A DNA stretch of 64,000 nt. Source: Candidatus Oxydemutatoraceae bacterium. Its GTDB lineage: Bacteria > Pseudomonadota > Gammaproteobacteria > Poriferisulfidales > Oxydemutatoraceae. Below the pieces are notes generated by a model that saw only the letters and a program-made list of their open reading frames with translations, made no database searches and had not been told where the DNA came from. Below, in pieces: positions 65 through 60,566 of the stretch. The DNA lies in contig OZ244717.1 in the NCBI GenBank assembly GCA_965218975.1, positions 1,728,001 through 1,792,000 of the forward strand, written 5' to 3'. Position 1 is the stretch's first letter, and each line of letters begins with the position of its first letter. Made by a program: the position numbers and the translations under genes.

Positions 65-185
65 GCAGGGTGGGACGCGCCGCTGAAAACCGATCGGTTA
101 TTCAGCGGCGAACGACCCGACAAGGACGCCGGGGCTGGCGCTCATTGACAGAACCAAGTCTCGTCATAGACGACAGGCACTTTGC
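65..185 (+). repeat. R repeat copy 1 (~120-bp structured element)
   Basis: GCAGGGTG...GAAAACCGATCGGTT...CCCGACAAGGACGCCGGGG...CACTTTGC; matches ten other copies. Confidence 0.9.
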
Positions 186-419
186 TGAGCATTCACCAAC
201 AAACACAAAACGGTTTCATAACCGATCATTGAATGCTTCCGTATCGGCGAATAGCAGGTCTTCCGCATGATTGATACAATCTTCTTGGACGGTGCGGTTG
301 AAACACTCGATGTACACGTTCATTTTTGGACACTTGGGATAGGTCAGCCACTGCTCAATCGCGGGTGATTCCCGGATGAGGCGGGCAAACTGTCCTTGAA
401 ACTCACTACCGCCGTCCGT

Positions 420-537
420 CAGGGTGAGACGCACCCGGAAAACCGATCGGTTTTCAACGGCAAACGACCCGACAAGGACGTCGGGCTGGCGCTCATTGAC
501 AGAACCAAGTCTCGTCATGGACGACAAGCACTTTGCC
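420..537 (+). repeat. R repeat copy 2
   Basis: CAGGGTGAGAC...GAAAACCGATCGGTTTTC...CACTTTGCC. Confidence 0.9.
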
Positions 538-875
538 AGGTTGCGGCAGTACCGACACTATACACCCAGGGTCAGGCGCAGGAATGCGGCAGCATTACGG
601 CTGTTACAGCGGTTGGTTGCCACTGCTGTTGCCATACGGGTATAGACATTGATGGCCGTTAAGACGTAGCGGTAACACTCCGTGCTGATAACGCACAATC
701 GTATCCAGGGCGATGCAATGCCCCGGATACTGTGCTTTGAAGTGTTTCGACTTGCGTGCCTTGCAACGGCGCTTGAACAGTCGTTTTGTTTATCCTTTGA
801 CATTCAGCCGCTGCGGAATACAGCGCATTTTATCCGGCGCATCCGCAATCAGGCGCGCAATCGTGCGGACACTCG

Positions 876-995
876 GGCAGGGTGAGACGCGCCCGGAAAA
901 CCGATCGGTTTTCAGCGGCGAACGGCCCGACAAGGATATCGGGGCTGAGGTTCATTCGCAGAACCAAGTTTCGTCACGGACGACAGACACTTTAC
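876..995 (+). repeat. R repeat copy 3 (tail continues to 1055)
   Basis: GGCAGGGTGAGAC...CACTTTAC, followed by tail ACACAAAACGGTTTCATCAGC...CTGCCGA. Confidence 0.9.
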
Positions 996-1056
996 TGACA
1001 ACGCGGCAACAAACACAAAACGGTTTCATCAGCTTAAAGACTTTACTGCTGCCGAG

Positions 1057-1418: not shown

Positions 1419-2726
1419 ATGACCGCAAACTTAGCAAAAGTTGCCAAAGAAAGAGGCATTAAATATTTTCTAGTCAGCTTCGTAGACTTGTTTGGAAACC
1501 TGCGGGCAAAGCTAGTGCCTGCGCATGCCATCAAAGACATGCAAAAAAATGGCGCAGGCTTTGCAGGCTTTGCAACATGGCTAGATATGACACCTGCACA
1601 TCCGGACCTATTTGGAGTACCGGACCCCGGTAGTTTGACTCAATTACCTTGGAATTCCGAGGTGGGTTGGTTAGCGTGTGACCTGTGGATGGATGGCAGA
1701 GAAGTCGAAGCTTCTCCTCGTGTTGCATTAAAAAGGCAACTTGAGCGTGCCGCCAAAAAAGGCTATTGCGTAAAAACAGGGGTCGAGTGTGAATACTTTC
1801 TGATTAATCAAGAAGGCACTGCGGTAGCAGATACAGCTGATACGCAAAGTAAACCCTGCTATGATCAACAAGCATTGATGCGGCATTATCCATTGATTCG
1901 CAAAATATGTGATAGCATGACCGAACTCGGATGGAACCCTTATCAAAACGACCATGAAGACGCTAATGGCCAGTTTGAAATGAATTGGGATTATGACGAT
2001 GCTATGTTGACCGCTGACCGGCATGTGTTTTTCAAATATATGACAAAAACTTTAGCTGAACAGCATAACCTACGCGCTACTTTTGCTCCGAAGCCATTTC
2101 CGAATTTAACTGGGAACGGTTGTCACGCACATATTTCCCTGTGGAATAAAACCGCGCAAAAGAACTTATTCTTGGATAAGAGCGATGATTTAGGTTTATC
2201 CGAGCTGGCCTATCAATTTCTAGGCGGTATCATGCAGCATGCGCAATCTTTGTGTGCAGTGTTTAACCCCACGGTGAACAGCTACAAGCGTATTAGCGCA
2301 CCACGCACCGCTTCGGGTGCTACCTGGTCGCCAAACTCTATCACCTATTCCGGTAACAATCGCACTCATATGATCCGCGTACCGGATGGTGGAAGATTCG
2401 AACTACGATTAATGGACGGCGCTGCAAATCCTTATTTATTACAAGCCGGCGTAATCGCCGCAGGATTGGATGGCATTAAAAACAAAAGTGATCCGGGTAA
2501 ACCTCTACATATTAATATGTACGAAGAAGGGTATAAACTAAAAGCAGTTAGGCAATTGCCGGCCACTCTAATCGATGCCTTACACTTACTCGACAAAAAT
2601 AAAGCGATTCGCAAAAGTTTAGGCGAAGAACTGATTAACGCGTTTATTAAACTTAAGATGCACGAATGGAGAGAATTCACTAGCCACTTCAGTGAGTGGG
2701 AACGTACCAACGCACTAGATTGTTGA
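1419..2726 (+). CDS. glnT: Type III glutamine synthetase-like protein GlnT, probable gamma-glutamylmethylamide synthetase (GmaS)
   Basis: 435 aa; KYFLVSFVDLFG, GAGFAGFATW, NDHEDANGQFEMN, GNGCHAH, RFELRLMDGAANPY motifs; neighbours Amt and Mgs-like genes. Confidence 0.85.
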   Translation: MTANLAKVAKERGIKYFLVSFVDLFGNLRAKLVPAHAIKDMQKNGAGFAGFATWLDMTPAHPDLFGVPDPGSLTQLPWNSEVGWLACDLWMDGREVEASPRVALKRQLERAAKKGYCVKTGVECEYFLINQEGTAVADTADTQSKPCYDQQALMRHYPLIRKICDSMTELGWNPYQNDHEDANGQFEMNWDYDDAMLTADRHVFFKYMTKTLAEQHNLRATFAPKPFPNLTGNGCHAHISLWNKTAQKNLFLDKSDDLGLSELAYQFLGGIMQHAQSLCAVFNPTVNSYKRISAPRTASGATWSPNSITYSGNNRTHMIRVPDGGRFELRLMDGAANPYLLQAGVIAAGLDGIKNKSDPGKPLHINMYEEGYKLKAVRQLPATLIDALHLLDKNKAIRKSLGEELINAFIKLKMHEWREFTSHFSEWERTNALDC

Positions 2727-3449
2727 TAATGTCGTCCGTTTCCAATTCTTATATAATAAGCGGGAATAGCGGTTCATATCTACCATATACTGATTGGCAG
2801 TTACATTCATATTCTCTAAAGCGCTCTCACCTAGCTGCTTTTCCAATGCGGACTTGTACGCGGGAATCTTGCCCCACTCCGTTACTGTCGTGGGTGTAAT
2901 TTCAATATGAAATTGCACGCTTAACACATGTGTTTCTATAGACATTGCTTGAACAATACAAGCGGGTGTCGAGGCAAGTACTTTTGCGTTTCTAGGCACA
3001 CGCTTTACTGCCGCACTGTGCCATTGCAAACAATACATATGTTTAGGCAACTGGTGCAAAAACGGACTATTAACACCCTGCTCCGTGCTCGTTACGCCCA
3101 GCACACCTATCTCAGGCTGCCGAGCTAAACGCACCTCTCCGCCTAATGCATCGGCTAATAGCTGGTGCCCTAAACAGAAACCTAAATAGGGCAATTTACG
3201 CTCCGACACAGCCTCACGAATCGCTGCCTTTTCATCTAATAACCAGGGATATTTATCTTCTTCCCATACATCCATCGGTCCGCCCATTACCCATAAAGCA
3301 TCATAACTATTCAAATTAGGGATGGGTTCACCTTCATCTAATTCAACGGTATGCCATTCAATCCCATCTTCTTTTAAAAATTCACGGAAGATTCCGGGGT
3401 GCTCTGCCGCAATATGTTGAAAAACCAATATTTGTTCTAACTTTTTCAC
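2715..3449 (-). CDS. Class I glutamine amidotransferase
   Basis: 244 aa; VMGGPM, GFCLGHQ nucleophile elbow, QFHIE triad; GTG start. Confidence 0.85.
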   Translation of the reverse strand: MKKLEQILVFQHIAAEHPGIFREFLKEDGIEWHTVELDEGEPIPNLNSYDALWVMGGPMDVWEEDKYPWLLDEKAAIREAVSERKLPYLGFCLGHQLLADALGGEVRLARQPEIGVLGVTSTEQGVNSPFLHQLPKHMYCLQWHSAAVKRVPRNAKVLASTPACIVQAMSIETHVLSVQFHIEITPTTVTEWGKIPAYKSALEKQLGESALENMNVTANQYMVDMNRYSRLLYKNWKRTTLSTI

Positions 3450-3451
3450 GA

Positions 3452-3949
3452 TTAATCAGCGCGCTTCAAATAAACACGTTCATTTGGCCCCTGCAACTCC
3501 ACATTAAACTTTGCCGTTTCAGGAGAGAATGCATCCTCTGCGACAATGTTCTCAAACATAATCTGCTGATTGCTAAAGTCGATGTAATTCACTCGTCGAT
3601 TATTCAATGTAAAAAATATTATATTAAGTGAATTCTGACGGACTAAAGAATCACGCTCTTCCTCAGACCAATCCCAATCAAACGGACAACCAGGGATATT
3701 TCTATCCGGTTTGTAATTTGACAAAATAAATGCCTTGTCCCATGCAAAAGGCATCGCATCGGTCAAATAAATAGTGCGATTAATATTATTTCTAAGATAA
3801 GTGTACAGATGTCCACGCAGCTGAGCTTGACTAGTACAGCTCTTATATTGAGCCTGGTAATACAAAACGAATACCAACGCAACTACTGAGGGTGCTATAA
3901 AGAGAATCGGTTTAGTCGGAATTTCCTGGAGTAAAACCCTTATATTCAT
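3452..3949 (-). CDS. Hypothetical protein with N-terminal membrane anchor
   Basis: 165-aa ORF with hydrophobic N-terminal segment; abuts the amidotransferase gene. Confidence 0.65.
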   Translation of the reverse strand: MNIRVLLQEIPTKPILFIAPSVVALVFVLYYQAQYKSCTSQAQLRGHLYTYLRNNINRTIYLTDAMPFAWDKAFILSNYKPDRNIPGCPFDWDWSEEERDSLVRQNSLNIIFFTLNNRRVNYIDFSNQQIMFENIVAEDAFSPETAKFNVELQGPNERVYLKRAD

Positions 3950-3996
3950 TTCAGCCGCCGAATAATACGACTTTTACCAGTTAAGACAGACTGCAT

Positions 3997-4028
3997 AAAA
4001 AAGTCCCGGCTTTAGAAAAGCCGGGACT
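3997..4028 (-). terminator. Rho-independent terminator of the amt operon
   Basis: Perfect 12-bp stem AGTCCCGGCTTT-AGA-AAAGCCGGGACT, followed by a T-run on the minus strand. Confidence 0.85.
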
Positions 4029-4052
4029 AACAGGAGAACGTCAGCGAAAAAA

Positions 4053-4313
4053 CTATCGTTTAAAATGTCGCGAGGAAGGGTCTTCTTCAAGCTCAAGCGC
4101 TTGCTTCAGCCCTTCTTTATCTCCCCAACGCTTCAATTCTTCTTTGTGTTCATATTTTTCTATGGCTATTTGCCATATATGCCACACTATCCAAATGACA
4201 AATCCAATGAAAAATAGAAGCCATTCGGCCCCTACCATCGGATAAATTGGCCCTAGCTGATCTAAGTTAGCAAAACTTGTAATACCGGTAGACATTTTAT
4301 TTTCTCCCGTCAT
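4053..4313 (-). CDS. Small single-pass membrane protein downstream of amt
   Basis: ~80-86 aa with one Trp-rich TM helix (WLLFFIGFVIWIVWHIWQI); lies between amt and the terminator. Confidence 0.7.
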   Translation of the reverse strand: MTGENKMSTGITSFANLDQLGPIYPMVGAEWLLFFIGFVIWIVWHIWQIAIEKYEHKEELKRWGDKEGLKQALELEEDPSSRHFKR

Positions 4314-4343
4314 TAATTATTTTAAATAGAAAGTATCGGATCA

Positions 4344-5762
4344 TTATATAAGCCCATCCTTTTTCGCATTCTCCAATAGCAATTTATCTAATTCGCTTGA
4401 CTCTAGGTCTATTTGCATTTCGCTAGAAATATCCAAACCTGCCAACTCGATTTCTTTCGGAATACGCAACAGCCCTGCAGCATCAAGTATCTTTGCTGCA
4501 ATAAGAGCTGGGAAAAATCCTAAGACAAAGAACATAATGAGTGCGCCGATAAATTGCCCCCAAGGCGAAATAGTTGCGTAGTTTTCAAACGGCGAAGCCG
4601 GATACCCCCACAACACAAAACCACAAATGACAACACCAAAAAAGCCAGCGTACCCATGCACCGCAACTGCGCCTACCGCATCGTCCACCTTGAATCTCTT
4701 CTCAACCCAGTGATGCATCCTATATGCAATAATCACGCCCACAATTGAGATAACGAATGCTTGCATTGGATGGTATAAGTCATTTCCTGCCGAGGCGGCA
4801 ATCAAACCCGCAAGCCCACCGGAAAATGTCCAGAAAGGATCACCTTTAGAAACAATATAACCGCTCATTAACCCCCCGGACAAAGCAATTAAGAAATTAA
4901 ACGTAATTGCCGAAAGTGTCGTGGGACCAAGGTAGATATTAGTCGCAGTAAACATTGTTTTGCCTTCAACGTCTAACATATCACCGCCAAAGAAATCTAT
5001 GATAGGCACATTACACGCTGCATAGAATCCCCAAAAACCCGTGTAAATGAGAAAGATACCTATACACAGCAGCCACGGATTGTGCGGATTAATATTTCGA
5101 GGCGCTCCATCTTCACGGAACTTTCCGATACGCGGACCTAAAACCAGCAGTATGCCTAAAGCGAACCCGCCCGCAATTGCATGAATAACTCCCGAAGCAT
5201 ACGCATCATGGTAGCCTAGCTTATGCACCATCCAGCCGTCCCAATGCCAGCCCCAAGCCGCATCGATAATCCAAAGGACCGAACCAATTAAAACAGCCAA
5301 GATCCAAAATCCGCCGGATTGAATGCGTTCAATCACCGCACCGGAAACAATTGATGCCGCGGTCCATGAAAAAAGTAAAAATGCGCCCCAAAATACACCG
5401 TTAATACGCGCCCAAGACGCTGTATTATCTGCAGTTAACGCTTCCTGTACAGGGACGCCACCCATATGAGGGCCCATCAGCTCACTCCAAGGTGTCGCGT
5501 GCACTGCGCTTTGTATACTGCCCATAATTCCCGGTCCGTACGGAAATGCAAAATAAATCCACCATCCGAAAAAGAAAAATGTAATGGTCACTAACGGAAT
5601 GATCATTATATTTTTCATTAGAGTATGTAAGTGGTTTTTATGTCTTGAAGCGCCTACTTCATACATGCAGAATCCCACATGGATTAGGAACATGATTACT
5701 ACAGTTACCCAATAATAAAATTCGGTAAAAACGACGGTAAGCGAGCCTAGTGCATCAGTCAT
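4344..5762 (-). CDS. amt: Ammonium/methylammonium transporter (divergent Amt)
   Basis: 472 aa, multi-TM; SIVSGAVIER, GVIH and AVHG twin-His, LGPRIGKF, VDDAVGA motifs; good RBS. Confidence 0.9.
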   Translation of the reverse strand: MTDALGSLTVVFTEFYYWVTVVIMFLIHVGFCMYEVGASRHKNHLHTLMKNIMIIPLVTITFFFFGWWIYFAFPYGPGIMGSIQSAVHATPWSELMGPHMGGVPVQEALTADNTASWARINGVFWGAFLLFSWTAASIVSGAVIERIQSGGFWILAVLIGSVLWIIDAAWGWHWDGWMVHKLGYHDAYASGVIHAIAGGFALGILLVLGPRIGKFREDGAPRNINPHNPWLLCIGIFLIYTGFWGFYAACNVPIIDFFGGDMLDVEGKTMFTATNIYLGPTTLSAITFNFLIALSGGLMSGYIVSKGDPFWTFSGGLAGLIAASAGNDLYHPMQAFVISIVGVIIAYRMHHWVEKRFKVDDAVGAVAVHGYAGFFGVVICGFVLWGYPASPFENYATISPWGQFIGALIMFFVLGFFPALIAAKILDAAGLLRIPKEIELAGLDISSEMQIDLESSELDKLLLENAKKDGLI

Positions 5763-5807
5763 ACCTATTCCTCCCTTTTGTTTTCTTTTGATCGCAACAC
5801 ATCTTAA

Positions 5808-5863
5808 ATTAAGTGTTCGTTAAACATTAAGTGTTCGTTAAACATAGCGAATATGCGAACATT
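5808..5863. promoter_or_regulatory. Tandem 18-bp direct repeat with TGTT-N5-AACA boxes upstream of amt (candidate operator)
   Basis: ATTAAGTGTTCGTTAAAC at 5808-5825 and 5826-5843; inverted half-site GCGAACATT at ~5855-5863. Confidence 0.45.
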
Positions 5864-6069
5864 ATTATTAGTTATGCCTGTATCGCAGCTAATACATTAC
5901 ACCTCATTTTTCATATAAAAAATATACCGTGAGTATTAGTCCTAATAGGTATATTTTTTCTAACTACTAATAGGCATAAATAAGTGTACGATGCCACCTA
6001 AATGGGATTTTTGAAGAGCTTTGAGGGAAGCGCTCGGCAGTAACATTCGGACCGGTGCTTTCTGTCCGT

Positions 6070-6183
6070 GTGAGACGCGCCCGGAAAACCGATCGGTTTT
6101 CAGCGGCGAACGACCCGACAAGGATGTCGGGGCTGGCACTCATTGACAGAACCAAGTCTCGTCATGGACGACAGGCACTTTGC
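6070..6183 (+). repeat. R repeat copy 4 (left end clipped)
   Basis: GTGAGACGCGCCCGGAAAACCGATCGGTTTTC...CACTTTGC. Confidence 0.9.
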
Positions 6184-6417
6184 TGAGCATTCGCCAACAA
6201 ACACAAAACGGTTCCATAACCGGTCATTGAATGCTTCCGTATCGGCGAATAGCAGGTCTTCTGCATGATCGATACAATCTTCTTGGACGGTGCGGTTGAA
6301 GCGCTTGATGTGTGCGTTCATTTTTGGACACTTGGGATAGGTCAGCCACTGCTCAATCACGGGTGATTCCCGGATGAGCCGGGCAAACTGTCCTTGAAAC
6401 TCACTCCCGCCGTCCGT

Positions 6418-6536
6418 CAGGGTGAAACGCGCCCGGAAAACCGATCGGTTTTCAGCGGCGAACGACCCGACAAGGACGTCGGGGCTGGCGCTCATTGACA
6501 GAACCCAGTCTCGTCATGGATGACAGGCACTTTGCC
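6418..6536 (+). repeat. R repeat copy 5 (tail to 6616)
   Basis: CAGGGTGAAAC...CACTTTGCC plus tail with three ACAATCC units. Confidence 0.9.
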
Positions 6537-6925
6537 GACAATCCGGCACAATCCGCCGACAATCCGGCAGCAAACACAAAACGGTTTCATCAGCTCAAAG
6601 ACTTTACTGCTGCCGAAATTCTGCCAGGCGCAGGAATGCGGCAGCACTACGGCTGTTACAGCGGTTGGTTGCCACTGCTGTTGCCATACGGGTATAGACA
6701 TCGATGGCCGTTAAGACGTAGCGGCGCACTTCGTGCTGATCACGCACGATTGTATCCAGGGCGATGCAATGCCCCGGATACTGTGCTTTGAAGTGTTTCG
6801 GCTTGCGTGCCTTGCAACGGTGCTTGAACAGTCGTTTTGTTTGTTCTTTAGCATTCAGATGCTGCAGAATACAGCGCATTTTATCCGGCGCATCCGCGAT
6901 CAGGCCGCAATCGTGCGGACACTCG

Positions 6926-7045
6926 GGCAGGGTGAGATGCGCCCGGAAAACCGATCGGTTTTCAGCGGCAAGCGACCCGACAAGGACGTCGAGGCTGGGG
7001 TTCATTCGCAGAACCAAGTCTCGTCATGGATGACAGGCACTTTGC
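6926..7045 (+). repeat. R repeat copy 6
   Basis: GGCAGGGTGAGAT...CACTTTGC. Confidence 0.9.
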
Positions 7046-7395
7046 TAGGTTGCGGCCAGGTCCGCCGACGCCTCTTGCGCGGTGCTTTGCCGCGGTCATG
7101 CAAGGCGCTGAGCCCAGTGCGGCGATAACGCTTGCGCCAGGCATACAAAGTGCTACGACTGAGCTTGAATGTGTTCGGGAGTTACAATCCTCCCAAAATA
7201 ACAGGGCATCGTGTTTCTGTTGAGCCGTTGTGTTCATGAGCCTCTATTTTTGAAGCAAAATTGGCTCATATAGAAACCTTTGATGCGGTGGCCGATGTGC
7301 TGGTATTGCATATCGGTCACCTTTTCGAGTTAAGCCGTGAGTCCCATATGTATCTGGCACTATACACTGTGGTTCCCGACTCGAAGTGGACCCGC

Positions 7396-7998
7396 TCATT
7401 GAAACAAGGACACACTACTCATTTCATTCGGCAAGGGGTCTGCGAGTACCCGCTTCCAATTAGGGTCAAAAGCAAGAATTTGAATGCTCGGCGGAAGGTG
7501 CGGATTAAATAAAGCATTGTGCCAATAAGTTGCCTGAAATTCATGTTCATTCGCAGCTAAATTCTTAACCCGGCACGGAATCGTATACTGTTGATTTTGT
7601 TGATGGAAAATTAATACAATCGTGTTCGCAGCTAGTATTCTATTTGTAATTTCGGATGCTGCGGGCAACAGTGCAGTCAATCGATCGGTGAATTGATCCG
7701 CATGTTGGTAATGACCGGCAACAAGCGTTTTCAATACCGAATCACGACGTATCGCCGGATCATGGGTTTTTTTATACATAAAACGAAATTCGGGAATCAA
7801 TCCCGTTAGGTCTCTCCGATTGATCAGTACAATAAGTCTGGTGAACACTTGATTATCTATGACGACCACCGCTCGCATTCCTGAAGACGGCCGCCCATCT
7901 TGCATACGCACTGCATGTTGACGTATCCGACATTGCCAACTTAAAAAATGATGGCGTAATAATTGTTCGGTCGATCGCGCACTTGCCACGATTATCAT
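7396..7998 (-). CDS. Hypothetical protein
   Basis: 200-aa ORF co-oriented with the mgs-like operon; protein-like composition (FLSWQCRIRQ...GRPS). Confidence 0.7.
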   Translation of the reverse strand: MIIVASARSTEQLLRHHFLSWQCRIRQHAVRMQDGRPSSGMRAVVVIDNQVFTRLIVLINRRDLTGLIPEFRFMYKKTHDPAIRRDSVLKTLVAGHYQHADQFTDRLTALLPAASEITNRILAANTIVLIFHQQNQQYTIPCRVKNLAANEHEFQATYWHNALFNPHLPPSIQILAFDPNWKRVLADPLPNEMSSVSLFQ

Positions 7999-8093
7999 CT
8001 CAGATAAGCAACATTAATAGCACATAGAAATAAACCGGAATCCGCCAATCAGACTAAAATTATTCTACATCCTATTAGTATAACGATCAGGCT

Positions 8094-8489
8094 TTAGCTA
8101 AATTTCCCATAAGCTTTGCGCAACTCAATCAGAGGATGATTCGGCGACATTTGAAATTTAACCAGCAGCTCTCTTGCAATCATGTCTCGATCCTGCTGAT
8201 TATCCGGTAGATCCATATCCTCCGGAACCGTAATCCAACCATTAATATTGCGATCAAAAACCGCAGCGCGACCTTCCTCATACCCCATATGTACATCTTC
8301 CAGCCAGTTGAGATCGCTCCAACCCATAATATCAATATATTTTTTAAGAAAAGGCGTGAGTTTGCTTAAATCGGGAACTAAATTTACATCGTAGCGATAA
8401 CCAATATGTTGCCCGATCATCCGAGCGCGCTCATCGTCGAGATCATCGGATTTTAGAAATTGATCAATGTCTTTGTTTTTTTTACTCAT
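8094..8489 (-). CDS. Small acidic hypothetical protein of the mgs-like operon
   Basis: 131 aa, 23 bp downstream of the FMN-glutamate synthase gene, RBS-like AGAGAG. Confidence 0.75.
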   Translation of the reverse strand: MSKKNKDIDQFLKSDDLDDERARMIGQHIGYRYDVNLVPDLSKLTPFLKKYIDIMGWSDLNWLEDVHMGYEEGRAAVFDRNINGWITVPEDMDLPDNQQDRDMIARELLVKFQMSPNHPLIELRKAYGKFS

Positions 8490-8512
8490 AATACTCTCTA
8501 AATAAAATCCTT

Positions 8513-9859
8513 TTAGAAACGTGTCATATCAGGACGCCCCACTGTGTACTGAGTCCCAGCGATCGGCACTTGCGCACATGCGGATGCTTCTAAGGTCAAT
8601 GCAGCTAAATCTTCCGGCTCTAAAGAATGAATGTTGGTCTTGCCGCATGCACGTGCAAACATTTGCGCTTCAATCGTTAAAGTATGTAAGAAGTTATAAA
8701 CGCGTATCGAGGCATCATCCGGATTCAGACGCGCGCGTAGCTGGGGGTCTTGTGTCGCCACGCCCACCGGGCAACGACCGGTATGACAATGATAACAACT
8801 ACCTGCTTCCACGCCCATTTCTTCTTCAAAATTTGCTTCCGGAATATCCTTATTACAGTTTAGCGCCATCAATGCCGCGTGTCCGATAGCGACAGCATCC
8901 GCACCTAAGGCAATCGCTTTTGCCAAATCCGCACCATTGCGAATTCCTCCCGCATAAACAAGAGATATTTGGTCTTCCATACCTACATCTTGAATTGCGC
9001 GGCGTGCTTGCCGTATTGCCGCGATCCCAGGAACACCGGTATCCTCTGTCGCAAGATGCGGACCCGCTCCCGTACCACCTTCCATGCCATCGATATAAAT
9101 TGAATCCGGATCCGTTTTTGCAGCCATACGCACGTCATCATAAACACGCGCTGCACCCAATTTTAATTGGATGGGAATTTGCCAATCTGTGGCTTCGCGT
9201 ATCTCTTGAATCTTTAAGGCAAGATCATCCGGCCCCAACCAATCAGGGTGTCTTGCAGGCGATCGTTGATCAATACCCGCAGGCAACGAACGCATTTCCG
9301 CAACTTGGTCGGTCACCTTTTGTCCCATCAAATGCCCGCCCAAACCTACTTTACAACCTTGTCCGATAAAAAACTCCACACCATCGGCAAGAAGTAAATG
9401 CTGCGGATTAAATCCGTATCGCGATTGAATACATTGGTAGAACCATTTTTCCGAGTAGCGACGTTCGTCAGGAATCATGCCGCCTTCACCTGAGCAGGTC
9501 GCAGTACCCGCCATAGTAGCGCCACGTGCCAATGCGGTTTTAGCTTCATAACTTAAAGCACCAAAACTCATACCGGTAATGTAAACAGGTATATCTAGTT
9601 TTAATGGCCGCTTTGCACGCGGACCAATAATCGTTTCGGTTGAACATTTCTCTCGATATCCTTCAATCACAAATCGAGTCAGGGTGCCCGGCATAAAAGT
9701 CAGGTCGTCCCATGTGGGAATTTTTTTAAATAGTGAAAATCCGCGCATACGATAACGGCCCAACTCAGACTTGATATGGATGTCATTAATCACCTCAGGA
9801 GGAAATATAAAGCTCTTTCCAAGTAGATATTTTTTATCTTCGTCTTTTACTGAAGGCAT
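8513..9859 (-). CDS. mgsC: FMN-binding glutamate synthase family protein (N-methylglutamate synthase subunit C-like, GlxD)
   Basis: GMSFGALS, SGEGG, GQGCKVGLGGHL, DGMEGGTGA, CYHCHTGRCPVG Fe-S motif. Confidence 0.75.
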   Translation of the reverse strand: MPSVKDEDKKYLLGKSFIFPPEVINDIHIKSELGRYRMRGFSLFKKIPTWDDLTFMPGTLTRFVIEGYREKCSTETIIGPRAKRPLKLDIPVYITGMSFGALSYEAKTALARGATMAGTATCSGEGGMIPDERRYSEKWFYQCIQSRYGFNPQHLLLADGVEFFIGQGCKVGLGGHLMGQKVTDQVAEMRSLPAGIDQRSPARHPDWLGPDDLALKIQEIREATDWQIPIQLKLGAARVYDDVRMAAKTDPDSIYIDGMEGGTGAGPHLATEDTGVPGIAAIRQARRAIQDVGMEDQISLVYAGGIRNGADLAKAIALGADAVAIGHAALMALNCNKDIPEANFEEEMGVEAGSCYHCHTGRCPVGVATQDPQLRARLNPDDASIRVYNFLHTLTIEAQMFARACGKTNIHSLEPEDLAALTLEASACAQVPIAGTQYTVGRPDMTRF

Positions 9860-9884
9860 ATTCTTTACCTCTCATGTATCTTGA

Positions 9885-10727
9885 TTATAGTACCAGTTTC
9901 TTTTCAGTCGGTTCAAGGTTGTCATAATTCCACAATTGCTTTCCAGACTCAATCTTGGTAATGTTTTCAACACCGTTCGGCGCTTCCATTCCGTATAACT
10001 CTAATTTACTTTCCAAGTAGCGAACGTCTACATCCGTCAATTCACCTTCAACCGCATCCACTCCTAATCTCTTAGTTTTACCAGCCAGATAAATAATCCC
10101 GTCGTACATGGAATCGCCCAGGTTTTCATTTGCATTACCCAAAATAATCATGCGGCCTCTTTGCATCATGAATCCCGAGAATGCACCGGTATCTCCGCCG
10201 ATAATAATCGTTCCGCCTTTTTGATCGATACCCGTACGCGAACCTACGCTGCCTTTGCAAACCAAATCCCCGCCACGAATTGCCGCACCAAAAGTTGACC
10301 CGGCGTTTTTTTCAATTACAATGGTTCCCGCCAGCATATTCTCTCCGCACGACCAACCGACGCGGCCATTAATGCGAACGTTCGGACCGTCAATAAGGCT
10401 ACAGGCAAAATACCCCAAGCTGCCTTCGAACTTCAAATTGAGCCGGTTTAGTATTCCAACACCTAGCGAATGTTTACCCATGGGATTTCTAACCGTAATC
10501 GTGCCGTAACCTTGTTTCATAAGTTCACGAATTTTGATGTTGATATCAGTGGTTCCCATATCCGCGCAATCGAATTCCGTTGACTTTTCAAAATCCACAT
10601 CATAAGCATACACATGAATAAAATTCTCTTCCGCAGAGGACGAGAAATATATCTGTTGGGTGCGACCCGACAGTTGCTCGGCATGCATCCCCATATCATA
10701 GGACTTGCTTTCTTTTACACTTGCCAT
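9885..10727 (-). CDS. mgsB: GXGXG/FwdC-like beta-helix protein (N-methylglutamate synthase subunit B-like, GlxC)
   Basis: Repeated G-rich units (GRVGWSCGENMLAG, GSVGSRTGIDQKGG, GDSMYDG). Confidence 0.7.
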   Translation of the reverse strand: MASVKESKSYDMGMHAEQLSGRTQQIYFSSSAEENFIHVYAYDVDFEKSTEFDCADMGTTDINIKIRELMKQGYGTITVRNPMGKHSLGVGILNRLNLKFEGSLGYFACSLIDGPNVRINGRVGWSCGENMLAGTIVIEKNAGSTFGAAIRGGDLVCKGSVGSRTGIDQKGGTIIIGGDTGAFSGFMMQRGRMIILGNANENLGDSMYDGIIYLAGKTKRLGVDAVEGELTDVDVRYLESKLELYGMEAPNGVENITKIESGKQLWNYDNLEPTEKKLVL

Positions 10728-11656
10728 ACCCGTACCTCCCCTTCATACGGATCAAAGGTGTCTATCTCACGCGGAAAAATGCTGCGAATTGAAATTTCTT
10801 CCGAAGCGAGAGCAACAAACTCATCACCTTCATAAATGACCATCGGCTTAGCAGCCATAGTATCTTTCGCCATTCCCAACTGATTGCCGGTTGCCACTAA
10901 ATAAGAAAATACACCATCCAAGTAATGTACTGAACGATTCATCGCTTCTTCCAAATCATCGCCTTGATCAATTCGGTCCGCTAAATACACGGCGATTAGT
11001 TCGGAATCACAATCCGACATGAAACGATGGCTTCGACGTTCCAATGCGCGTCGATTGGTCCAATAATTGGTCAACTGGCCATTATGCACGACAGACACAT
11101 CTGTGAACGGATATGCCCAATACGGATGCGCCGATCGTATATCAACATCTGATTCCGTCGCCATACGTGCATGACCAATGCTATGGGTGCCTTTGAAATC
11201 GCTTAACTTGTACTGCCTAGATACGGTTTCGGCATCGCCCAAATCTTTGATCAATTCCAACGCATTTCCAACCGACATTATTTCGACACCGTCCACATCT
11301 TCAACATAATCAATCAGCCGACGCAAATCCCCATCGAAAGTAAAAGTATAACGGTGAGAATATTCTGTCGGGACTTGTCGATCCGTAATATTAGCGCCTG
11401 ATTCCTTTAAACGCGCTCCAACCGCTTCTTCTCGCGCTTTTACTTCCGCATGAATACCAAAACCTATTTTCATTGCTTCTTGTTCCGCAGTAATAAAGCG
11501 CATTACATATTCATTTTTATCTTTGTTCGCATTTCCGTACAAAGCAAACCCGGTAGAGTCATACCCACGATGTCTCAAAGCTTGCAACATCAAGGTCATT
11601 TCCAAACCGATGTTCGAACTTTTACCTTTCCAGATAAGCCCCGCTATTCCACACAT
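10715..11656 (-). CDS. mgsA: Class II (Ntn) glutamine amidotransferase (N-methylglutamate synthase subunit A-like, GlxB)
   Basis: MCGIAG N-terminal Cys, HRGYDSTG, GHARMATES, VHNGQLTN, DSE motifs. Confidence 0.75.
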   Translation of the reverse strand: MCGIAGLIWKGKSSNIGLEMTLMLQALRHRGYDSTGFALYGNANKDKNEYVMRFITAEQEAMKIGFGIHAEVKAREEAVGARLKESGANITDRQVPTEYSHRYTFTFDGDLRRLIDYVEDVDGVEIMSVGNALELIKDLGDAETVSRQYKLSDFKGTHSIGHARMATESDVDIRSAHPYWAYPFTDVSVVHNGQLTNYWTNRRALERRSHRFMSDCDSELIAVYLADRIDQGDDLEEAMNRSVHYLDGVFSYLVATGNQLGMAKDTMAAKPMVIYEGDEFVALASEEISIRSIFPREIDTFDPYEGEVRVWQV

Positions 11657-11680
11657 CACAATTCTCCTGTTTATTATTTA

Positions 11681-13156
11681 TTAGGGTAGATAGTCCAGAT
11701 AAGTATCTACGTCCCATTCCGTCACAGTGTGATTAAAACGCTCCCATTCATCGTTTTTATAATGAGTAAATACTTTGTACATTTCATCCGGCATAGATGA
11801 TTTAATCACCTCGTCTCTATCCAAAGCTTCCAACGCTTTACCTAGCGACATCGGCAACCGCTTGATGTCTTTGCCCTCTTTAATCGCTTCGTAAATATTG
11901 CGTTCTTCCGGTTCCCCCGGATCTAAATCATTGCAAATCCCATCATCGAATGCTTTTAATAATGCCGCCCCCATTAAGTAAGGATTGACCATAGAATCTA
12001 CAGAGCGATATTCAAAGCGCCCCGGCGCAGAAACCCGTAAACCGCAGGTTCGATTTTGAAATCCCCAATCTGCAAAAACCGGCGCCCAAAAACCGGTATC
12101 CCATAAACGTCTATACGAATTCACAGTAGACGAGCCAATCGCCGTCAATGCTTGCAAGTGTGCCATGACGCCACCGATACACTGCAAACCGATGAGGCCA
12201 GGTTTGCGATCATCGATTTTAGGATCCGGCATAAAGGTGTTTTCGCCACCTTGTAGATAGCTAAACACGTCTTCCATGCCACACAGCGGGTCCTGATGCA
12301 ATGAGTTCACTACGGACTCACCGCCTTTCCACAACGAAACGTTATGATGGCAGCCCGAGGCGGATACCCCCATAAACGGTTTCGTCATAAAACAGGCAAC
12401 TAAATTTTGTTCGCGCGCAACTTGCGCGCATATTTGCCGATAGGTGGTGAGACGATCCGCATTACGCATGACGTCATCAAACATCCAGTTTAATTCGAGT
12501 TGCCCCGGAGCGTCCTCATGATCGCCCTGTATCATGTTGTAACCCATTTGCTCGGCATACTCAATCACTTTCATCGAGGCAGGCCTTAACTCTTCAAATT
12601 GATCAATATGGTAGCAATTAGGCTTCGTTACACCGCCATCAAGTTGGCCGTTTTCATCCCGCTTCAACCACATCATTTCAGGTTCAGTACCCATACGCAT
12701 GTGTAAGCCATCATGCTTGTTTATAAATTCATTATGAATGATACGCAGATTACCGCGGCAATCTGAGGTCAAATGAGTGCCCGGATTATTTCTTTCCTCT
12801 CGATTGCGAAAACACGTACAAAATACCCGCGCAATACGCTTATCCCAAGGCAATTGACAGAATGTTTCCGGATCGGAAATGCCAACAAGTTCTGAGGCTT
12901 CCGGACCGTAACCGATATAATTTCCATGCCGATCAATATAAAGGTTGGCAGTAGAGCCATAAACCAACTGAAAACCTTTTTCAGCGATGCGTTCCCAATG
13001 ATCGGCAGGTATTCCTTTACCGACAATTCGACCGGTGACGGATACGAATTGAAAATAGATATACTTGATATTTAAAGAATTTATCTTGTCACGGACTTGT
13101 TTCACCAGATCGCTTCTTCCATCAGCGTTCACGTGTTTTTCCAAATCTGTCGCCAT
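11681..13156 (-). CDS. Second glutamine synthetase-like (gamma-glutamylamide ligase) protein
   Basis: GTEPE, GDHEDAPGQLELN, KPFMGVSASGCHHN, RFEYRSVDSMVNPY; start taken at MATDLEK (13156). Confidence 0.85.
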   Translation of the reverse strand: MATDLEKHVNADGRSDLVKQVRDKINSLNIKYIYFQFVSVTGRIVGKGIPADHWERIAEKGFQLVYGSTANLYIDRHGNYIGYGPEASELVGISDPETFCQLPWDKRIARVFCTCFRNREERNNPGTHLTSDCRGNLRIIHNEFINKHDGLHMRMGTEPEMMWLKRDENGQLDGGVTKPNCYHIDQFEELRPASMKVIEYAEQMGYNMIQGDHEDAPGQLELNWMFDDVMRNADRLTTYRQICAQVAREQNLVACFMTKPFMGVSASGCHHNVSLWKGGESVVNSLHQDPLCGMEDVFSYLQGGENTFMPDPKIDDRKPGLIGLQCIGGVMAHLQALTAIGSSTVNSYRRLWDTGFWAPVFADWGFQNRTCGLRVSAPGRFEYRSVDSMVNPYLMGAALLKAFDDGICNDLDPGEPEERNIYEAIKEGKDIKRLPMSLGKALEALDRDEVIKSSMPDEMYKVFTHYKNDEWERFNHTVTEWDVDTYLDYLP

Positions 13157-13206
13157 TTTTAGCACCCCTATATTTTTATGTTTTATAAAATGAAAATCAC
13201 TCCGAC

Positions 13207-14550
13207 CTAACTCCAAGGGTACGGACTGTGAGAGACCGGATGTAATTTCCCTTCTTCATAACGCGAAAATCGAAATGGCTCAAGTAGTTTGCTTTTTTGG
13301 CTGACGATCTCTTCCGCAGCTAATTTTCCTATTCCAATCATTTTGTAGCCATGATTCGAATCCGCAATAACATAGCAGTTATCTCGAAATACATCGAATA
13401 CGGGGAAACTGTCCGGAGCAAACACTCCGATTCCCCCCGATGGTTCTTTTTTATATTTCGTGAGCGTTCCTTCAAAACGTTTTTGGCAATGCGCTAAAGC
13501 AGATACCCACATTTCCGCAAACGCGTCATCAACAACGTAATCCGGCGAATCGGGACCGTAAGGGTCCACTTTTACTTGATCCGGGTCGGTATCGATCTTA
13601 AACGGCGCGGCACCGCCTTGAACGCCGCCAAAGTTAAAGTCCGGCTTATAATAGATACCCCATAATTTATCGGTAATTAATTTACCGTTGCCATCGGCAT
13701 AGAGCGGTGCGTCCGTATCGACATGAACCACCGGCGGGAAATCTCCACCATTAGTCTTTTGTAGCTGCGGGTCAACACCTAATGTTCCTTCCTGCAAGGA
13801 CCAATAGACCCACATCGGAACATGATCGTGAATTACCCCATTCGCGTCTTTTACATCTATAAATTTAGGCAAATCCAGCATCTCCCATATACTTTTTATC
13901 CATGGTCCGACTCCAACTATTACATAATCACATGAAATGATTCCTTTATCAGTCTCTGCCGCTTTGATCGCATCGCTAATAGCGCAACTTTGAAAGCCCG
14001 TAACTTTTACGCCAGGTAAAAACCGCACCCCTTCATTCTTCGCTTTAGCCGCAAGTCCTTTCATGCTTGGTAAGTTGCTCGCGTAGCCACCGCGCTTTTC
14101 ATGCAAAATTGAAGTAATGTTTTCAGCTTGCCAATCGCTAAAAATACTTTTCATATAATCGGCGCATTCTTTTTTCCCTTCAATAAATACGGATTCGTAA
14201 CCAATATCTTTCTGTTGTCGAGCGATACTTGCAACATCCGTACGCATCACTTCAGGCGCCGCTTGTATGTAGCCCACCGGAAAGTAACGATATGCTTTAG
14301 GATCGCTTTCCCAAACTTCCACACTGTGTACCATTAATTCGCGCATTGCCGGTTGAAAATAATTATTTCTTATCACACCGCAGGCAATTCCCGACGCGCC
14401 CGCTCCCACGTCTTTTTTATCCACAATTAAGATATCGTTACCGCTGCCTGCGCCGCTTGCTTTCAATCGCAATGCAAGATGATAAGCCGTGCTCAAGCCA
14501 TGCACTCCTGCTCCGATCACCAGGTACTTGGTTTTATTTACGAAACTCAT
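13207..14550 (-). CDS. FAD-dependent oxidoreductase (sarcosine oxidase beta / DadA-like)
   Basis: IGAGVHG FAD motif, GAGASGIACG, C-terminal HGYKM and PFRFSRY. Confidence 0.85.
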   Translation of the reverse strand: MSFVNKTKYLVIGAGVHGLSTAYHLALRLKASGAGSGNDILIVDKKDVGAGASGIACGVIRNNYFQPAMRELMVHSVEVWESDPKAYRYFPVGYIQAAPEVMRTDVASIARQQKDIGYESVFIEGKKECADYMKSIFSDWQAENITSILHEKRGGYASNLPSMKGLAAKAKNEGVRFLPGVKVTGFQSCAISDAIKAAETDKGIISCDYVIVGVGPWIKSIWEMLDLPKFIDVKDANGVIHDHVPMWVYWSLQEGTLGVDPQLQKTNGGDFPPVVHVDTDAPLYADGNGKLITDKLWGIYYKPDFNFGGVQGGAAPFKIDTDPDQVKVDPYGPDSPDYVVDDAFAEMWVSALAHCQKRFEGTLTKYKKEPSGGIGVFAPDSFPVFDVFRDNCYVIADSNHGYKMIGIGKLAAEEIVSQKSKLLEPFRFSRYEEGKLHPVSHSPYPWS

Positions 14551-14754
14551 TATCGAAATTTTATGCAGTAGACTTGCTGCTCAACACTATGCATTGAAGG
14601 CTGATTCAATGAATTCTCCATTAAAAAATGATGACCTTTTACTTGTTTAACCGTCAATTGCACTTTGTATTTACTACCTAATGAGTAGTCGATAGTATTC
14701 AAGTAAGAGTTTAGAAATTTGCTCAAGCTAAGGCTCACAGATTGAATAACTACG

Positions 14755-15003
14755 CTAAAGCCTTGATCTTATATACCTAAAAATCCCGAAAAGACTAATC
14801 AAAACCCAAAATGCTTCGACGATAAATGCCGACATATTAAATTCGTACATCAAGGAAACTATAACAAAAAACGCACCTAAGGCATTCAGTACGGAATACG
14901 ACAAGCTAGTACTGGGCAAGCGCTCTAGTTGCAACAAAAAATAGGTAATAATAATCAGCGCCACTCCGATATTACCTAGTATGTCATGCCATTGATAGAT
15001 CAT
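14755..15003 (-). CDS. Small 3-TM membrane protein (CBU_0592-like)
   Basis: 82 aa; GNIGVALIIITY, YSVLNALGA, EAFWVLISLFG pattern. Confidence 0.7.
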   Translation of the reverse strand: MIYQWHDILGNIGVALIIITYFLLQLERLPSTSLSYSVLNALGAFFVIVSLMYEFNMSAFIVEAFWVLISLFGIFRYIRSRL

Positions 15004-22515: not shown

Positions 22516-22560
22516 AATAGCGGTAAATTGTATCCGTTCGTACGATGGAACACAAATATT

Positions 22561-23810
22561 TGTACGTGTCCAATACATTCCGGACAAATGAGGGAGTTGC
22601 CGGGCAATGACTTGATACGGAGCCATGTAGTTCAATCCCCGGTGGGGGCACTCGCCGTTGTAGCGCTGCAAGTAATCAATCATCTACCGGTTAAACTCAC
22701 CGATATCTTCAAGCAGTAACGCTTCCCGATAGTCGATAAACTCTTCCTGGACAGTACGGTTGAAGCGCTCGTTATAAGCATTCATTTTGGGGTACCCGGG
22801 TAAGTATAGCAGTGGCGGATCTTTCGGTGCCGTCGGTCAATACTTGCTCGATTTTGCCCGGTAAGACCGTTTGCACCAAGGCGACAAACCGAGCCGCTTG
22901 GGTGCTATTGCCGCGAGGCACTGCCGACGAAGGCAAAGCGGCTTGAATGATCCGTTGCGGTCGGAATATAGCGTCGGCTGCCTTCGATAAAACAGATAAT
23001 AGTATCGAAAGCAACACAGTGTCCGACATGCTTGGCACCGGCTTTGCGATCTAGACGCGGGCGCGGCGGCTTACGTCGCAACGGTTTGGCTCAACCTTTG
23101 CGATCCAAGCGCTGCGGTGAGCAACGCATCCGATCCGAGGCATCTGAAATCAAGCGTCCGATCGTCGTCGCACTCGAACACAACAGACCTTGCTTCCGGC
23201 ACCACGGCAAGTGCAACACATAAATCTTGTCCCGTCCCTAGTGGGGTATCTTAGGCGCAGACGACGGATTTCCCGGATCAGAGTTCGCGGCCAGACTCAA
23301 CGTCGGCGTTTACGCGGCGTTCTGCTGCGGTCGTGCAAACTGCTCAACCCTCCCTTTTGTGTTTGTTGGCGGATTGTCGGCGGATTGTGCCGGATTGTGC
23401 CGGATTGTCGGCAAAGTGCCTGTCATCCATGACGCGACTGGGTTCTGTCAACAAGCCCCAGCCCCGACGTCCTTGTCGGGTCGTTCGCCGCTGAAAACCG
23501 GTCGGTTTTCCGGGCGCGTCTCACCCTGCCGATAGGCCAGGGCGCCATGCATACAGCATCAAACGACTGATCTTGAATGCATCGCAGACAGCGACCATGC
23601 CATGGTTTTCCTGGAAGGTGAGAATTTTGAGTCGTTGTTTTGCATCGTAAGCTTATAGTGTCCCAACTATGCTCGATTTTAGCGACCCGGTAAAACCCCC
23701 GGATTCGATAGCCTATATGTTGGATTTGTAAGGCTTCTCTTCCTGTCGGTAGGAGTGCCAAATGTTTCTAAGCTTATGCACAAGGTTCCCACTAAATATA
23801 AATCAATATA
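22561..23810 (-). mobile_element. IS481-family relic (subtype B) carrying one R repeat
   Basis: Right end TGTACGTGTCCAATACATTCCGGAC; fragments QIQHIGYRIRGFY, KIEQVLTDG, RFNRTVQEEF, YNGECPH; frameshifts and stops; left boundary approximate. Confidence 0.8.
23410..23530 (-). repeat. R repeat copy 7 (tail extends to ~23354)
   Basis: Reverse complement of R; both ends complete (GGCAAAGTG...CACCCTGCC); tail with four GGATTGT units. Confidence 0.9.
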
Positions 23811-23895
23811 CCTTATACTTCGTATTTTCTACACCGGATATATGCACGCATCAATGCCACTGAAAGATTGAGGGCATGATAAACAGGAGGACAAC

Positions 23896-32859: not shown

Positions 32860-32900
32860 TACGTTTTATTATATGCAATCTATAACATGATACTCTTTCT
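32860..32900 (+). repeat. 41-bp direct repeat, left copy
   Basis: TACGTTTTATTATATGCAATCTATAACATGATACTCTTTCT; 38/41 identical to 33865-33905. Confidence 0.9.
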
Positions 32901-33502
32901 GTATATGCCAGATATATATAGGACTCACGGCGCGACTCAAATATGCAATATCAGCACCGGCCACTGCATCAAAGGTTTTTGTACGAGCCAATTTAGCTAA
33001 CAAAATAAAGATTATGATGGGGAGGCTCATGGCAACCAGTGCCGACAAGAAACACGATACCCTCATTTTTTTGGGGTTTGTAACACACGACGTTTCCTGC
33101 CGATCTGTGACCGGCTTGTCGTTTCGGGGGAAACTACGGACCAGGATGTCACCGAGCGCATTCAAGGTCGGTCGTTCAACACTGTATGCATGGCGTCCTA
33201 TTGACAAGGAGAGTTGAGCAGTTTACGCGATCGCGGCAAAGCACCGCGCAAACAGCGGCGGCGGATCTGACCGTAGCCCGGCAAAGTACCTGTCGTCCAT
33301 GACGAGACTTGGTTCTGGCAATGAACCCCAGCCCCGACGTCCTTGTCGGGTCGTTCGCCGCTGAAAACCAATCGGTTTTCCGGGCGCGTCTCACCCTGCA
33401 CCACCCTCATGCCGATAACGAACAGTAAGCACCAATCCGAATATTACTGCCAAACGCCTCCCTCAAAGCCCTGCAAGAATCCCACCAGGGTGGCATCGTA
33501 CA
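32900..33502 (+). mobile_element. Internally deleted IS481 subtype A (5' part-R-3' part)
   Basis: Left end TGTATATGCCAGATA, right end GGTGGCATCGTACA; fragments GHCIKGF and RSTLYAWR; one R copy joins the first and last segments. Confidence 0.85.
33280..33399 (-). repeat. R repeat copy 8
   Basis: GGCAAAGTACC...CTCACCCTGC. Confidence 0.9.
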
Positions 33503-53753: not shown

Positions 53754-55306
<1,553 letters not shown>

Positions 55307-55644: not shown

Positions 55645-55763
55645 GCAGGGTGAGACGCGCCCGGAAAACCGATCGGTTTTCAGTGGCGAACGACCCGACA
55701 AGGACGTCGGGGCTGGCGCTTATTGACAGAACCAAGTCTCGTCATGGACGACAGGCACTTTGC
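55645..55763 (+). repeat. R repeat copy 9 (tail to 55823)
   Basis: GCAGGGTGAGAC...CACTTTGC. Confidence 0.9.
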
Positions 55764-56132
55764 TGAAAATCCGGCAGCAAACACAAAATGGTTTCATCAG
55801 CTCAAAGACTTTACTGCTGCCGAAATTCTGCCAGGCGCAGGAATGCGGCAGCACTACGGCTATTACAGCGGTTGGTTGCACTGCTATTGCCATTCGGGTA
55901 TAGACATCAATGGCCGTTAAGACGTAGCGGCGCACTCCGTGCTGATAACGCACAATCGTATCCAGGGCGATGCAATGCCCCGGATACTGTGCTTTGAAGT
56001 GTTTCGGCTTGCGTGCCTTGCAACGGCGCTTGAACAGTCGTTTTGTTTGTCCTTTGGCATTCAGCCATTGCGGAATACAGCGCATTTTATCCGGCGCATC
56101 TGCGATCAGGCGCGCAATCGTGCGGACACTCG

Positions 56133-56252
56133 GGCAGGGTGAGATGCGCCGCTGAAAACCGATCGGTTTTCAGCGGCGAACGACTCGACAAGGATGTCGG
56201 GGCTGGGTTCATTCGCAGAACCAAGTTTCGTCACGGACGACAGACACTTTAC
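56133..56252 (+). repeat. R repeat copy 10 (tail to 56312)
   Basis: GGCAGGGTGAGAT...; perfect 32-bp palindrome variant. Confidence 0.9.
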
Positions 56253-56330
56253 TGATAACACGGCAACAAACACAAAACGGTTTCATCAGCTCAAAGATTT
56301 TACTGCTGCCGAGATTCGGATAAGCCTGGC

Positions 56331-56449
56331 GCAGAGTGAGACGCGCCCGGAAAACCGATCGGTTTTCAGCGGCGAACGACTCGACAAGGACGTCGGGGCT
56401 GGCGTTCATTGACAGAACCAAGTCTCGTCATGGACGACAAGCACTTTGC
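56331..56449 (+). repeat. R repeat copy 11
   Basis: GCAGAGTGAGAC...CACTTTGC. Confidence 0.9.
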
Positions 56450-56946
56450 TGACAATCCGCCGACGCTTCTTACGCGGCGCTTTGCCGCGGTCATGCAAGG
56501 CGCTGAGTCCAGTGCGGCGATAACGCCGGCGCCAGCGGTACAAAGTGCTGCGACCGACCTTGAATGCGTTCGGGAGTTACAACCCTCACAAAATAACCGG
56601 GCATCGTGTTTCTGTTGAGCCGTTGTGTTCATAATAGCCTCTATTTTTGAAGCAAAATTGGCTCATATAGAAACCTTTGATGCGGTGGCCGATGTGCTAA
56701 TATTGCATATCGGTTACCTTTTTGAGTCGTGCCGTGAATCCCACATGTATCTGGCACTGTACACCCGGATTTTTTAGGGTTATTTGTCTTTGCGCCTATG
56801 GTAAAGCTTGTTCTTGAGGAGTTTGCACTGTCCTTTGGCGTTGGTTCGGACGGGAATAGTGCGCATTCTATCCGGTGCTACGCATACCGCTTCACTGCTT
56901 TAGCTTGACGCGGCCGCTAGCATAAAAAGCGCCATAAACTCTTCAT

Positions 56947-59055: not shown

Positions 59056-59066
59056 TTTACCGATTA

Positions 59067-60184: not shown

Positions 60185-60187
60185 AAT

Positions 60188-60565: not shown

Positions 60566-60566
60566 A

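Follow-up and report, generated by a model that had tools for sequence, protein, structure and literature searches.

One end of a short repeat, here called R, has been joined precisely 3' of 5'-CAGR at five independent sites of the window (the whole 64,000-nt stretch that was analysed), in both orientations and without a TSD. The explanation tentatively preferred here is an insertion that was one-ended and led by a single strand, with host end joining to complete it, and the enzyme would most likely be of the IS91-like HUH type and act in trans; R itself is possibly, though far from certainly, a short non-autonomous mobile element that needs just one functional end. The case consists of five old events in one window. 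The original prediction was of one fixed and one variable end, with target DNA replaced and no TSD; the geometry, the target loss (at five of the six variable junctions) and the lack of a TSD at sites 1-4 all stand, but the microhomology is firm at only one junction, and one insertion, in the relic termed B, lost about zero target.

The IS481 relics and their R copies

Six IS481-family relics lie in the window:

1-1290: A-type copy (c1)
5985..7375, minus strand: relic of subtype A (c2), with TGT...ACA ends, a transposase interrupted by three R copies, and weak rve and rve_3 matches
Near 15.9 kb: IS481 left-end fragment
22560..23830, minus strand: subtype-B relic (B), empty at sites 1-4, the comparator for the A copies
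32900-33502: short hybrid copy (c4), the empty allele for the B site
55541-56766: A-type copy (c3)

The A copies are mutually 94-95% identical over the IS segments common to them, and subtype B is 68% identical to subtype A over the core segment compared. The c2 transposase fragment has 33 homologues, most of them with rve/rve_3 domains, and the 30 that exceed 300 aa served as intact IS481-type references.

Several other features adjoin these relics. IS481 ends are nested within c1 (540-570, 1056-1075 and 1144-1290): a left end after AAAFLRL, an inverted left end adjoining R, and an inverted B-type right end. The relic c2 splits a cluster (1419-15703) of two glutamine-synthetase-like genes, glutamate synthase-like subunits, amidotransferases, an ammonium transporter and a cupin. 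A small CCDC90/DUF1640-like gene (33535-33750, plus strand) adjoins an IS481 relic, and a type III secretion apparatus cluster (FHIPEP, YscX, STAS, HrpJ/TyeA, YscU family; 56947-63933, minus strand) lies immediately beside c3. Elsewhere, a 16S rRNA gene (53754-55306, minus strand) is followed by a gap of about 480 nt, a tRNA and trigger factor, with no adjoining 23S gene, which makes it an unlinked rRNA operon, and an HSDR_N protein of 520 aa, which has a weak SeqA-like match at its C-terminus, contains a 300-nt internal duplication (24667-25353; 91% identical).

The core motif of R has 11 matches in the window as against 0.00 expected from shuffles. The 11 copies, found by motif scan and nhmmer, all lie within IS481 relics, three of them within 6070-7060 (6070 to about 6217, 6422-6616 and 6932-7046):

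70..220, minus strand: R at site 4 in c1
424..538, minus strand: R in c1, with the left junction of site 1a and the right junction of site 3
882..1055, minus strand: R at site 2 in c1, 174 nt, adjoining an inverted IS481 left end
6070..6217, minus strand: R at site 4 (YN-L-H-RPH) in c2, length about 148 nt; the variable end has cost about 17-23 nt of target, and a secondary loss removed 23 nt of right flank
6422..6616, minus strand: R at site 3 (before LTD) in c2, 174 nt with a further 21 nt of tandem duplication; target loss about 29 nt
6932..7046, minus strand: R in c2, 115 nt, with the left junction of site 1a and the right junction of site 2; probably an R x R recombinant, in which about 100 nt of the IS are absent
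23355..23524, plus strand: R in the subtype-B copy, reversed relative to the transposase, 139 nt plus a 31-nt tandem duplication; about zero target loss
33280..33394, plus strand: R in c4, with the left junction of site 1a and the right junction of site 4
55650..55823, minus strand: R in c3, 174 nt, with the left junction of site 3 and the right junction of site 4
56139..56312, minus strand: 174-nt R at site 2 in c3; target loss after PNLG about 52 nt
56336..56460, minus strand: R of about 125 nt at site 1 in c3, with a TCTG target and a microhomology of 9 nt; target loss about 34 nt

These copies collapse to only five fixed-end insertion sites and six variable junctions. The B copy had been described as uninterrupted at the sites compared; this holds for sites 1-4, but it carries an R of its own in the opposite orientation.

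R is a non-coding, hairpin-rich sequence of 115-174 nt, its longest form being 174 nt, and its copies are 83-96% identical in pairwise comparisons of the core. On the transposase strand, it ends in ...GTCTCAC, and an 18-nt palindrome lies close to this end:

6436..6453, no strand: subterminal palindrome of R, 14 nt from the fixed end

The 7-bp stem of this palindrome is invariant in the 11 aligned copies except for one 1-nt insertion. The tandem duplications in two copies (21 and 31 nt) fall within a stem-loop with a hypervariable 9-nt loop; the expansions there (6538-6584 and 23352-23408) are in units of 10-11 nt, and a further one occurs in P0160, the sibling allele described below. The loop was considered as a target guide and rejected, by inspection, for lack of complementarity to CAGR. 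An imperfect terminal palindrome has been perfected independently in two R copies at different sites (66-104 and 56139-56178), as intrastrand template switching predicts. Folding z-scores are modest (-1.57 and -1.65), and no sigma-70-like promoter was found in 5900-7500. The core substitutions (G>A 12, C>T 10, A>G 5, T>C 4, A>C 2, and four others once each) reveal no adenine-specific mutagenesis, and a diversity-generating retroelement was rejected on this ground. R was also rejected as a coding fragment: its 57-aa open frame has no Pfam match, a low ESM Atlas score and one chance plasmid match.

The fixed junction and its target

The fixed end reads TCAC/YCTG, the stroke marking the junction, in 10 of the 11 copies; the exception is the copy at 6070. 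That copy had been taken to be clipped within R, but comparison with the copies at 70 and 55650 shows its R end to be whole, with 23 nt of the flank lost later. The five distinct sites read TCTGCG at s1 (LRQAY), CCTGCC at s2 (CPS), CCTGAC at s3 (LTD), CCTGCA at s4 (LHRPH) and CCTGCC at the B site, which is in reverse orientation, against a background YCTG frequency of 0.006 per position. Two of the tetramers lie beside the copies in c2:

6418..6421, minus strand: target tetramer CCTG at site 3 (5'-CAGG on the plus strand), where CTG encodes a Leu present in 30/30 homologues
6928..6931, minus strand: target tetramer CCTG at site 2 (P-C of LPCPS)

The CTG had been thought common to R and the target. 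Judged from the empty alleles and the conserved codons, YCTG is wholly target DNA and no part of R. Indeed, the CTG is in frame on residues conserved among the homologues (L in 21/24 at s1, C in 23/25 at s2, L in 30/30 at s3 and L in 11/30 at s4). Moreover, site 1 in the empty B and 15.9-kb alleles reads CGTCTGCGC, which supplies the T of the sole TCTG junction, and the empty allele of the B site, in c4, reads CAAGG where B has CAGG. With YCTG assigned to the target, the point at which R is joined lies, on the other strand, 3' of 5'-CAGR, with a looser upstream consensus GGCAGR that each of the five upstream hexamers matches at five or six of six positions. The agreement of the T of the TCTG junction with the empty allele also led to the rejection of two other candidates, namely, a relaxase nic-type crossover after CCTG and an ISAs1-like CAGGG end for R.

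No TSD is present at sites 1-4, and at the B site, the overlap is at most 2 nt. R has no terminal inverted repeats, and its two ends are mutually dissimilar. These absences, together with the variable end, bear out the earlier view that R is not a DDE MITE.

The same observations weigh on a very improbable explanation, in which R DNA was passively captured at random IS481 breaks by templated break repair, or else R is a DDE-type MITE with a CAGGG end of its own. All 11 copies do lie in IS481 relics, and IEE/transposase systems cause microhomology deletions beside IS elements, according to the part of PMC9943667 available. Against this, the target-coded CTG largely refutes such an origin, TIRs and TSDs are absent, and the preference for IS481 is not significant (5/5 sites, p ~0.11): 43 of the 67 non-genic [GT]CAG[AG] sites, in counts that include R itself, lie in IS481 relics, so the apparent preference arises because neutral DNA lies there. 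The proposal that R was pasted as single-stranded DNA or cDNA into breaks in the IS therefore fares well only in its first half. A single-strand-led geometry fits, but the breaks are unsupported because random break repair would not give sequence-specific junctions at 5/5 sites.

The variable junctions

Six variable junctions can be distinguished:

s1a: R of 115 nt; 20 nt of target lost if paired with s1; microhomology at chance level
s1b: R of about 125 nt; 34 nt lost; microhomology firm, 9 nt
s2: R of 174 nt; 52 nt lost; microhomology probable (TCGGC at PNLG)
s3: R of 174 nt; 29 nt lost; microhomology unproven
s4: R of about 148 nt; 17-23 nt lost; microhomology unproven
B: R of 139 nt; about 0 nt lost; microhomology at chance level

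The losses, which come from codon spacings in the homologues and from empty alleles, are thus about 17-52 nt at five of the six junctions. As compared with the intact IS481-type homologues, 9 codons are missing between W.P and LR (in 25/30 homologues, the other 5 being unmatched by the regex), 18 (18/30) or 19 (7/30) between PNLG and CP, 15 between AxxF and LTD, and 6 between FNxxL and YN. The codon spacings of the B copy agree with those of the intact homologues. The estimate of 6-18 missing codons was therefore right for the A sites, and the deleted codons do exist in the intact IS. It fails for the 6932-7046 copy, which pairs the left junction of site 1 with the right junction of site 2 and where about 100 nt are missing. 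At the B insertion, the change relative to the empty allele at about 33200 ranges from a loss of -2 to +1 nt, and this absence of target loss led to the rejection of TnpB-type gap repair.

Microhomology was confirmed at KRRR (s1b), where both parents of the 9-nt match are visible and 0/595 background windows reach 9 nt. The TCGGC match at PNLG is probable rather than firm. The ATG(G/A)AAC match claimed at DRLWN is probably derived from R: W and N are outside the five commonest residues at those columns in the 30 homologues, and the sibling copy reads TGA. The left junction of s3 resembles the flank of s2 (GAATYTCGGC), and s3 may be a read-through copy of s2, in which case the 174-nt end that they have in common would perhaps be no natural terminus. 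At three of the six variable junctions the end is at CCGA, which agrees with CAGA in three of its four letters; this coincidence is weak because R contains 11 C-N-G-R tetramers in 174 nt and because s2 and s3 are possibly of one origin.

At the level of events, target loss is one-sided, being found at 5/6 variable and 0/5 fixed junctions, the sole exception among copies being one later 23-nt clip in 1/11. This one-sidedness, the survival of the same end everywhere and the clustering of all six breakpoints 115-174 nt from the fixed end argue for a ragged end that arose during insertion itself. On the other hand, small deletions like these are also present in R-free parts of the relics (in B after LTDG, and in the 15.9-kb fragment).

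Such deletions are the starting point of another, unlikely, explanation, in which a longer element was inserted precisely at CAGR and later microhomology deletions took away some of the flank and all of the element but R, its one surviving end. The clip at 6070 is of this kind, site 1 has two left junctions, neither of which can be derived from the other, and four apparent R x R recombinants imply that secondary rearrangement was common. Decay of this sort is hard to square with the retention of the same end at 5/5 sites without any remnant of a second R end beside any copy, with breakpoints that keep to 115-174 nt from the fixed end on the R side and to 0-52 nt on the target side, and with the near-zero loss at B. 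Moreover, P0160 has the same 174-nt boundary without a longer continuation.

The four apparent recombinants are the copies at 424, 6932, 33280 and 55650, which pair left and right junctions from different sites and would most simply have arisen by R x R recombination. P0160 is an ORF on a different 21-kb ENA contig; it runs from an antisense R at s2, through an empty s1 in which the six missing codons are present, to a CCDC90/DUF1640-like tail similar to the small gene at 33535-33750. It is one sibling allele of R in another assembly, and it independently supports the figures for codon loss. Its candidacy as the parent gene of R was rejected, the frame being an antisense read-through of that allele.

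A possible mechanism

The evidence for a one-ended HUH-type insertion consists of the fixed junction with its target-derived YCTG, the one-sided loss, the lack of a second-end remnant, the near-precise B insertion and the invariant palindrome. A trans-acting IS91-like HUH (rolling-circle) transposase would recognise the terminal palindrome of R as an 'ori', nick the target after CAGR and attach a single strand of R to the 3'-OH of the target. Since a proper terminator is missing, the free end would be trimmed and rejoined by host microhomology or template-switch repair, a sloppy step that would remove some of R together with 0-52 nt of target. The IS481 copies that carry R would then have multiplied, as their identity and the junctions common to different loci suggest, and recombination among R copies would have produced the chimeric ones.

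The properties of the IS91 family lend themselves to this. In the portion of PMC13181058 consulted, its elements have no TSD, insert beside a tetranucleotide and carry subterminal palindromes, and R likewise lacks a TSD and has such a palindrome. IS801, as described in the available part of PMC3189936, yields one-ended minis of 229, 360 and 679 nt with a common right end, which make up 26% of its insertions. Against the HUH reading, R is unlike the ori region of the one IS91 copy compared (86 and 33 of 200 shuffles do as well), and blastn gave no match in plasmids or E. coli. Its tetramer, CAGR at 5/5 sites, is not of the CTTG/GTTC/GTCC type and lacks the T that IS91 targets have at position 2, as that portion of PMC13181058 has it. 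The one-ended IS801 products described in the same part of PMC3189936 stop at a target-like tetramer, with no target loss reported there, whereas R loses target. The relation of CCGA to CAGA at the R junctions parallels that of the IS91 ter CTCG to CTTG, but this parallel is weak.

A somewhat unlikely alternative is that insertion was led by RNA and an RT, either as target-primed reverse transcription (TPRT) of a short RNA or as abortive group II intron retrohoming that left a 5' remnant. In the former, the target 3' end ...CAGR would pair with a YCUG following the terminal hairpin, and the cDNA end would be joined by microhomology; in the latter, R would be read as GUGAG..., with the 6-nt upstream consensus GGCAGR acting as IBS1. 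A precise start, a ragged end, target deletion and microhomology are also what the accessible text of PMC3280974 describes for the joining of linear group II intron cDNA in Drosophila embryos, and a bacterial RT (G2L4 RT) is reported, in the part of bioRxiv 2022.03.14.484287 available, to perform microhomology end joining. In the excerpts available of PMC4181065 and PMC5894124, RmInt1-like introns have IS elements as targets and lose the 3' end as they decay. The start of R matches GUGYG at four of five positions, and the fit of all five upstream hexamers to GGCAGR also favours this alternative.

Other observations are against it. No Rfam group II D1 or D5/D6 (Intron_gpII) match to R was found at E<=10, where a real intron used as a control scores 118 and 52 bits, respectively. 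As a 5' remnant, R begins with GTGAG rather than GUGYG, and no domain I similarity was found in Rfam, at seven class-D loci or, for other classes, by blastn of whole collections. The comparisons with the seven class-D 5' regions gave nothing consistent, with 22-198 of 200 shuffles as high in the sense direction and one antisense comparison at 3/200 among 14 tests. The retained 174 nt contain no UCUG-type EBS1 and no full EBS1 complement to GGCAGR, which could lie beyond them, and there is no IBS2 consensus upstream. As a 3' remnant, R has no similarity to the RmInt1-type 3' end, and its 34-nt GAGC...GTTC stem and CTCAC ending look superficially intron-like, though by inspection no more than 8/14 canonical pairs are made. 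The empty alleles have no IBS1 consensus, though they are subtype-B or hybrid sequences. A strand inference from G-U pairs was dropped: hand-picked stems were skewed to the transposase-strand orientation, but a rule fixed beforehand gave 6:3 (p=0.25).

A more specific form, and an improbable one, would make R a bacterial SINE-like element, that is, a ribozyme-less RNA of about 175 nt retroposed in trans by TPRT, in which the YCUG after each donor end would perpetuate the motif through primer-template pairing and the cDNA end would be joined by microhomology.

A look for RT or HUH enzymes among neighbouring genes had been proposed as a check; neither was found in the 58 ORFs and 41 intergenic frames of the window.

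Relatives of R and significance

Rfam searches with the window and with R alone gave nothing relevant, and blastn gave one chance match in plasmids, two in phages and none in E. coli. A pattern scan of GTDB returned 22 single matches (L001-L022), none of which extends beyond about 27 nt of R; they cover the palindrome only, and none is an R copy. This palindrome, 18-20 nt long, is found repeatedly in Streptomyces and related genomes (about 14 actinobacterial loci among the 22), often with several occurrences in one locus, and there it looks like a regulator operator unrelated to R. A profile search with the open frame of R gave four matches, three being repeat-driven and unrelated and the fourth P0160. 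The literature searched, from which subscription papers are largely absent, contains no description of R, nor of any one-ended mini-element that targets CAGR and replaces target DNA.

If the HUH reading is true, R is a mini-element reduced to its ori, whose target specificity, CAGR, is new and whose insertion replaces target DNA instead of interrupting it, which widens the IS91-type repertoire; it also reveals a route by which dead IS copies erode in a repeat-rich genome. If the RT reading is true, R is a short non-autonomous bacterial retroelement, of which none is described in the literature searched. In either case, R, as a cis-unit of 175 nt whose target is defined, is short enough for its mobility to be tested directly, given the enzyme.

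Comparison with known systems

DDE MITEs are like R in size and copy number, and differ from it in having what R lacks, namely TIRs, a TSD and a second constant end. The IS200/IS605 (Y1 HUH) elements have two defined ends and a guide tetramer beside a hairpin that pairs with the cleavage motif; they were rejected as a model since one end of R is variable and no fitting guide lies beside its terminal hairpin, as judged by inspection.

Among group II introns, linear retrohoming, in the accessible text of PMC3280974, resembles R in having one precise junction and another that is truncated, with exon deletion and microhomology. R differs in having no detectable D5/D6 and in its conserved target bases on the retained side, and that work concerns an engineered intron in Drosophila. 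RmInt1-like 5' remnants such as FRE652 (PMC4181065, in the excerpt available) also keep the 5' end, lose the 3' part and have IS hosts, and R starts with GTGAG; FRE652, at 652 nt, is clearly intron-like there, whereas R, at 115-174 nt, has neither class D similarity nor an Rfam D1 match.

The closest parallel to the preferred HUH reading is provided by the IS801/IS91 one-ended minis (PMC3189936, in the part available), which, like R, are short and non-coding, have one fixed and one variable end, insert at a tetranucleotide target without a TSD and are moved in trans. R differs from them in its lack of similarity to the IS91 ori, in its CAGR target, in the 17-52 nt of target lost at most sites and in that no parent element was found. 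R works like an IS91 one-ended mini, but it should not be filed as a member of IS91.
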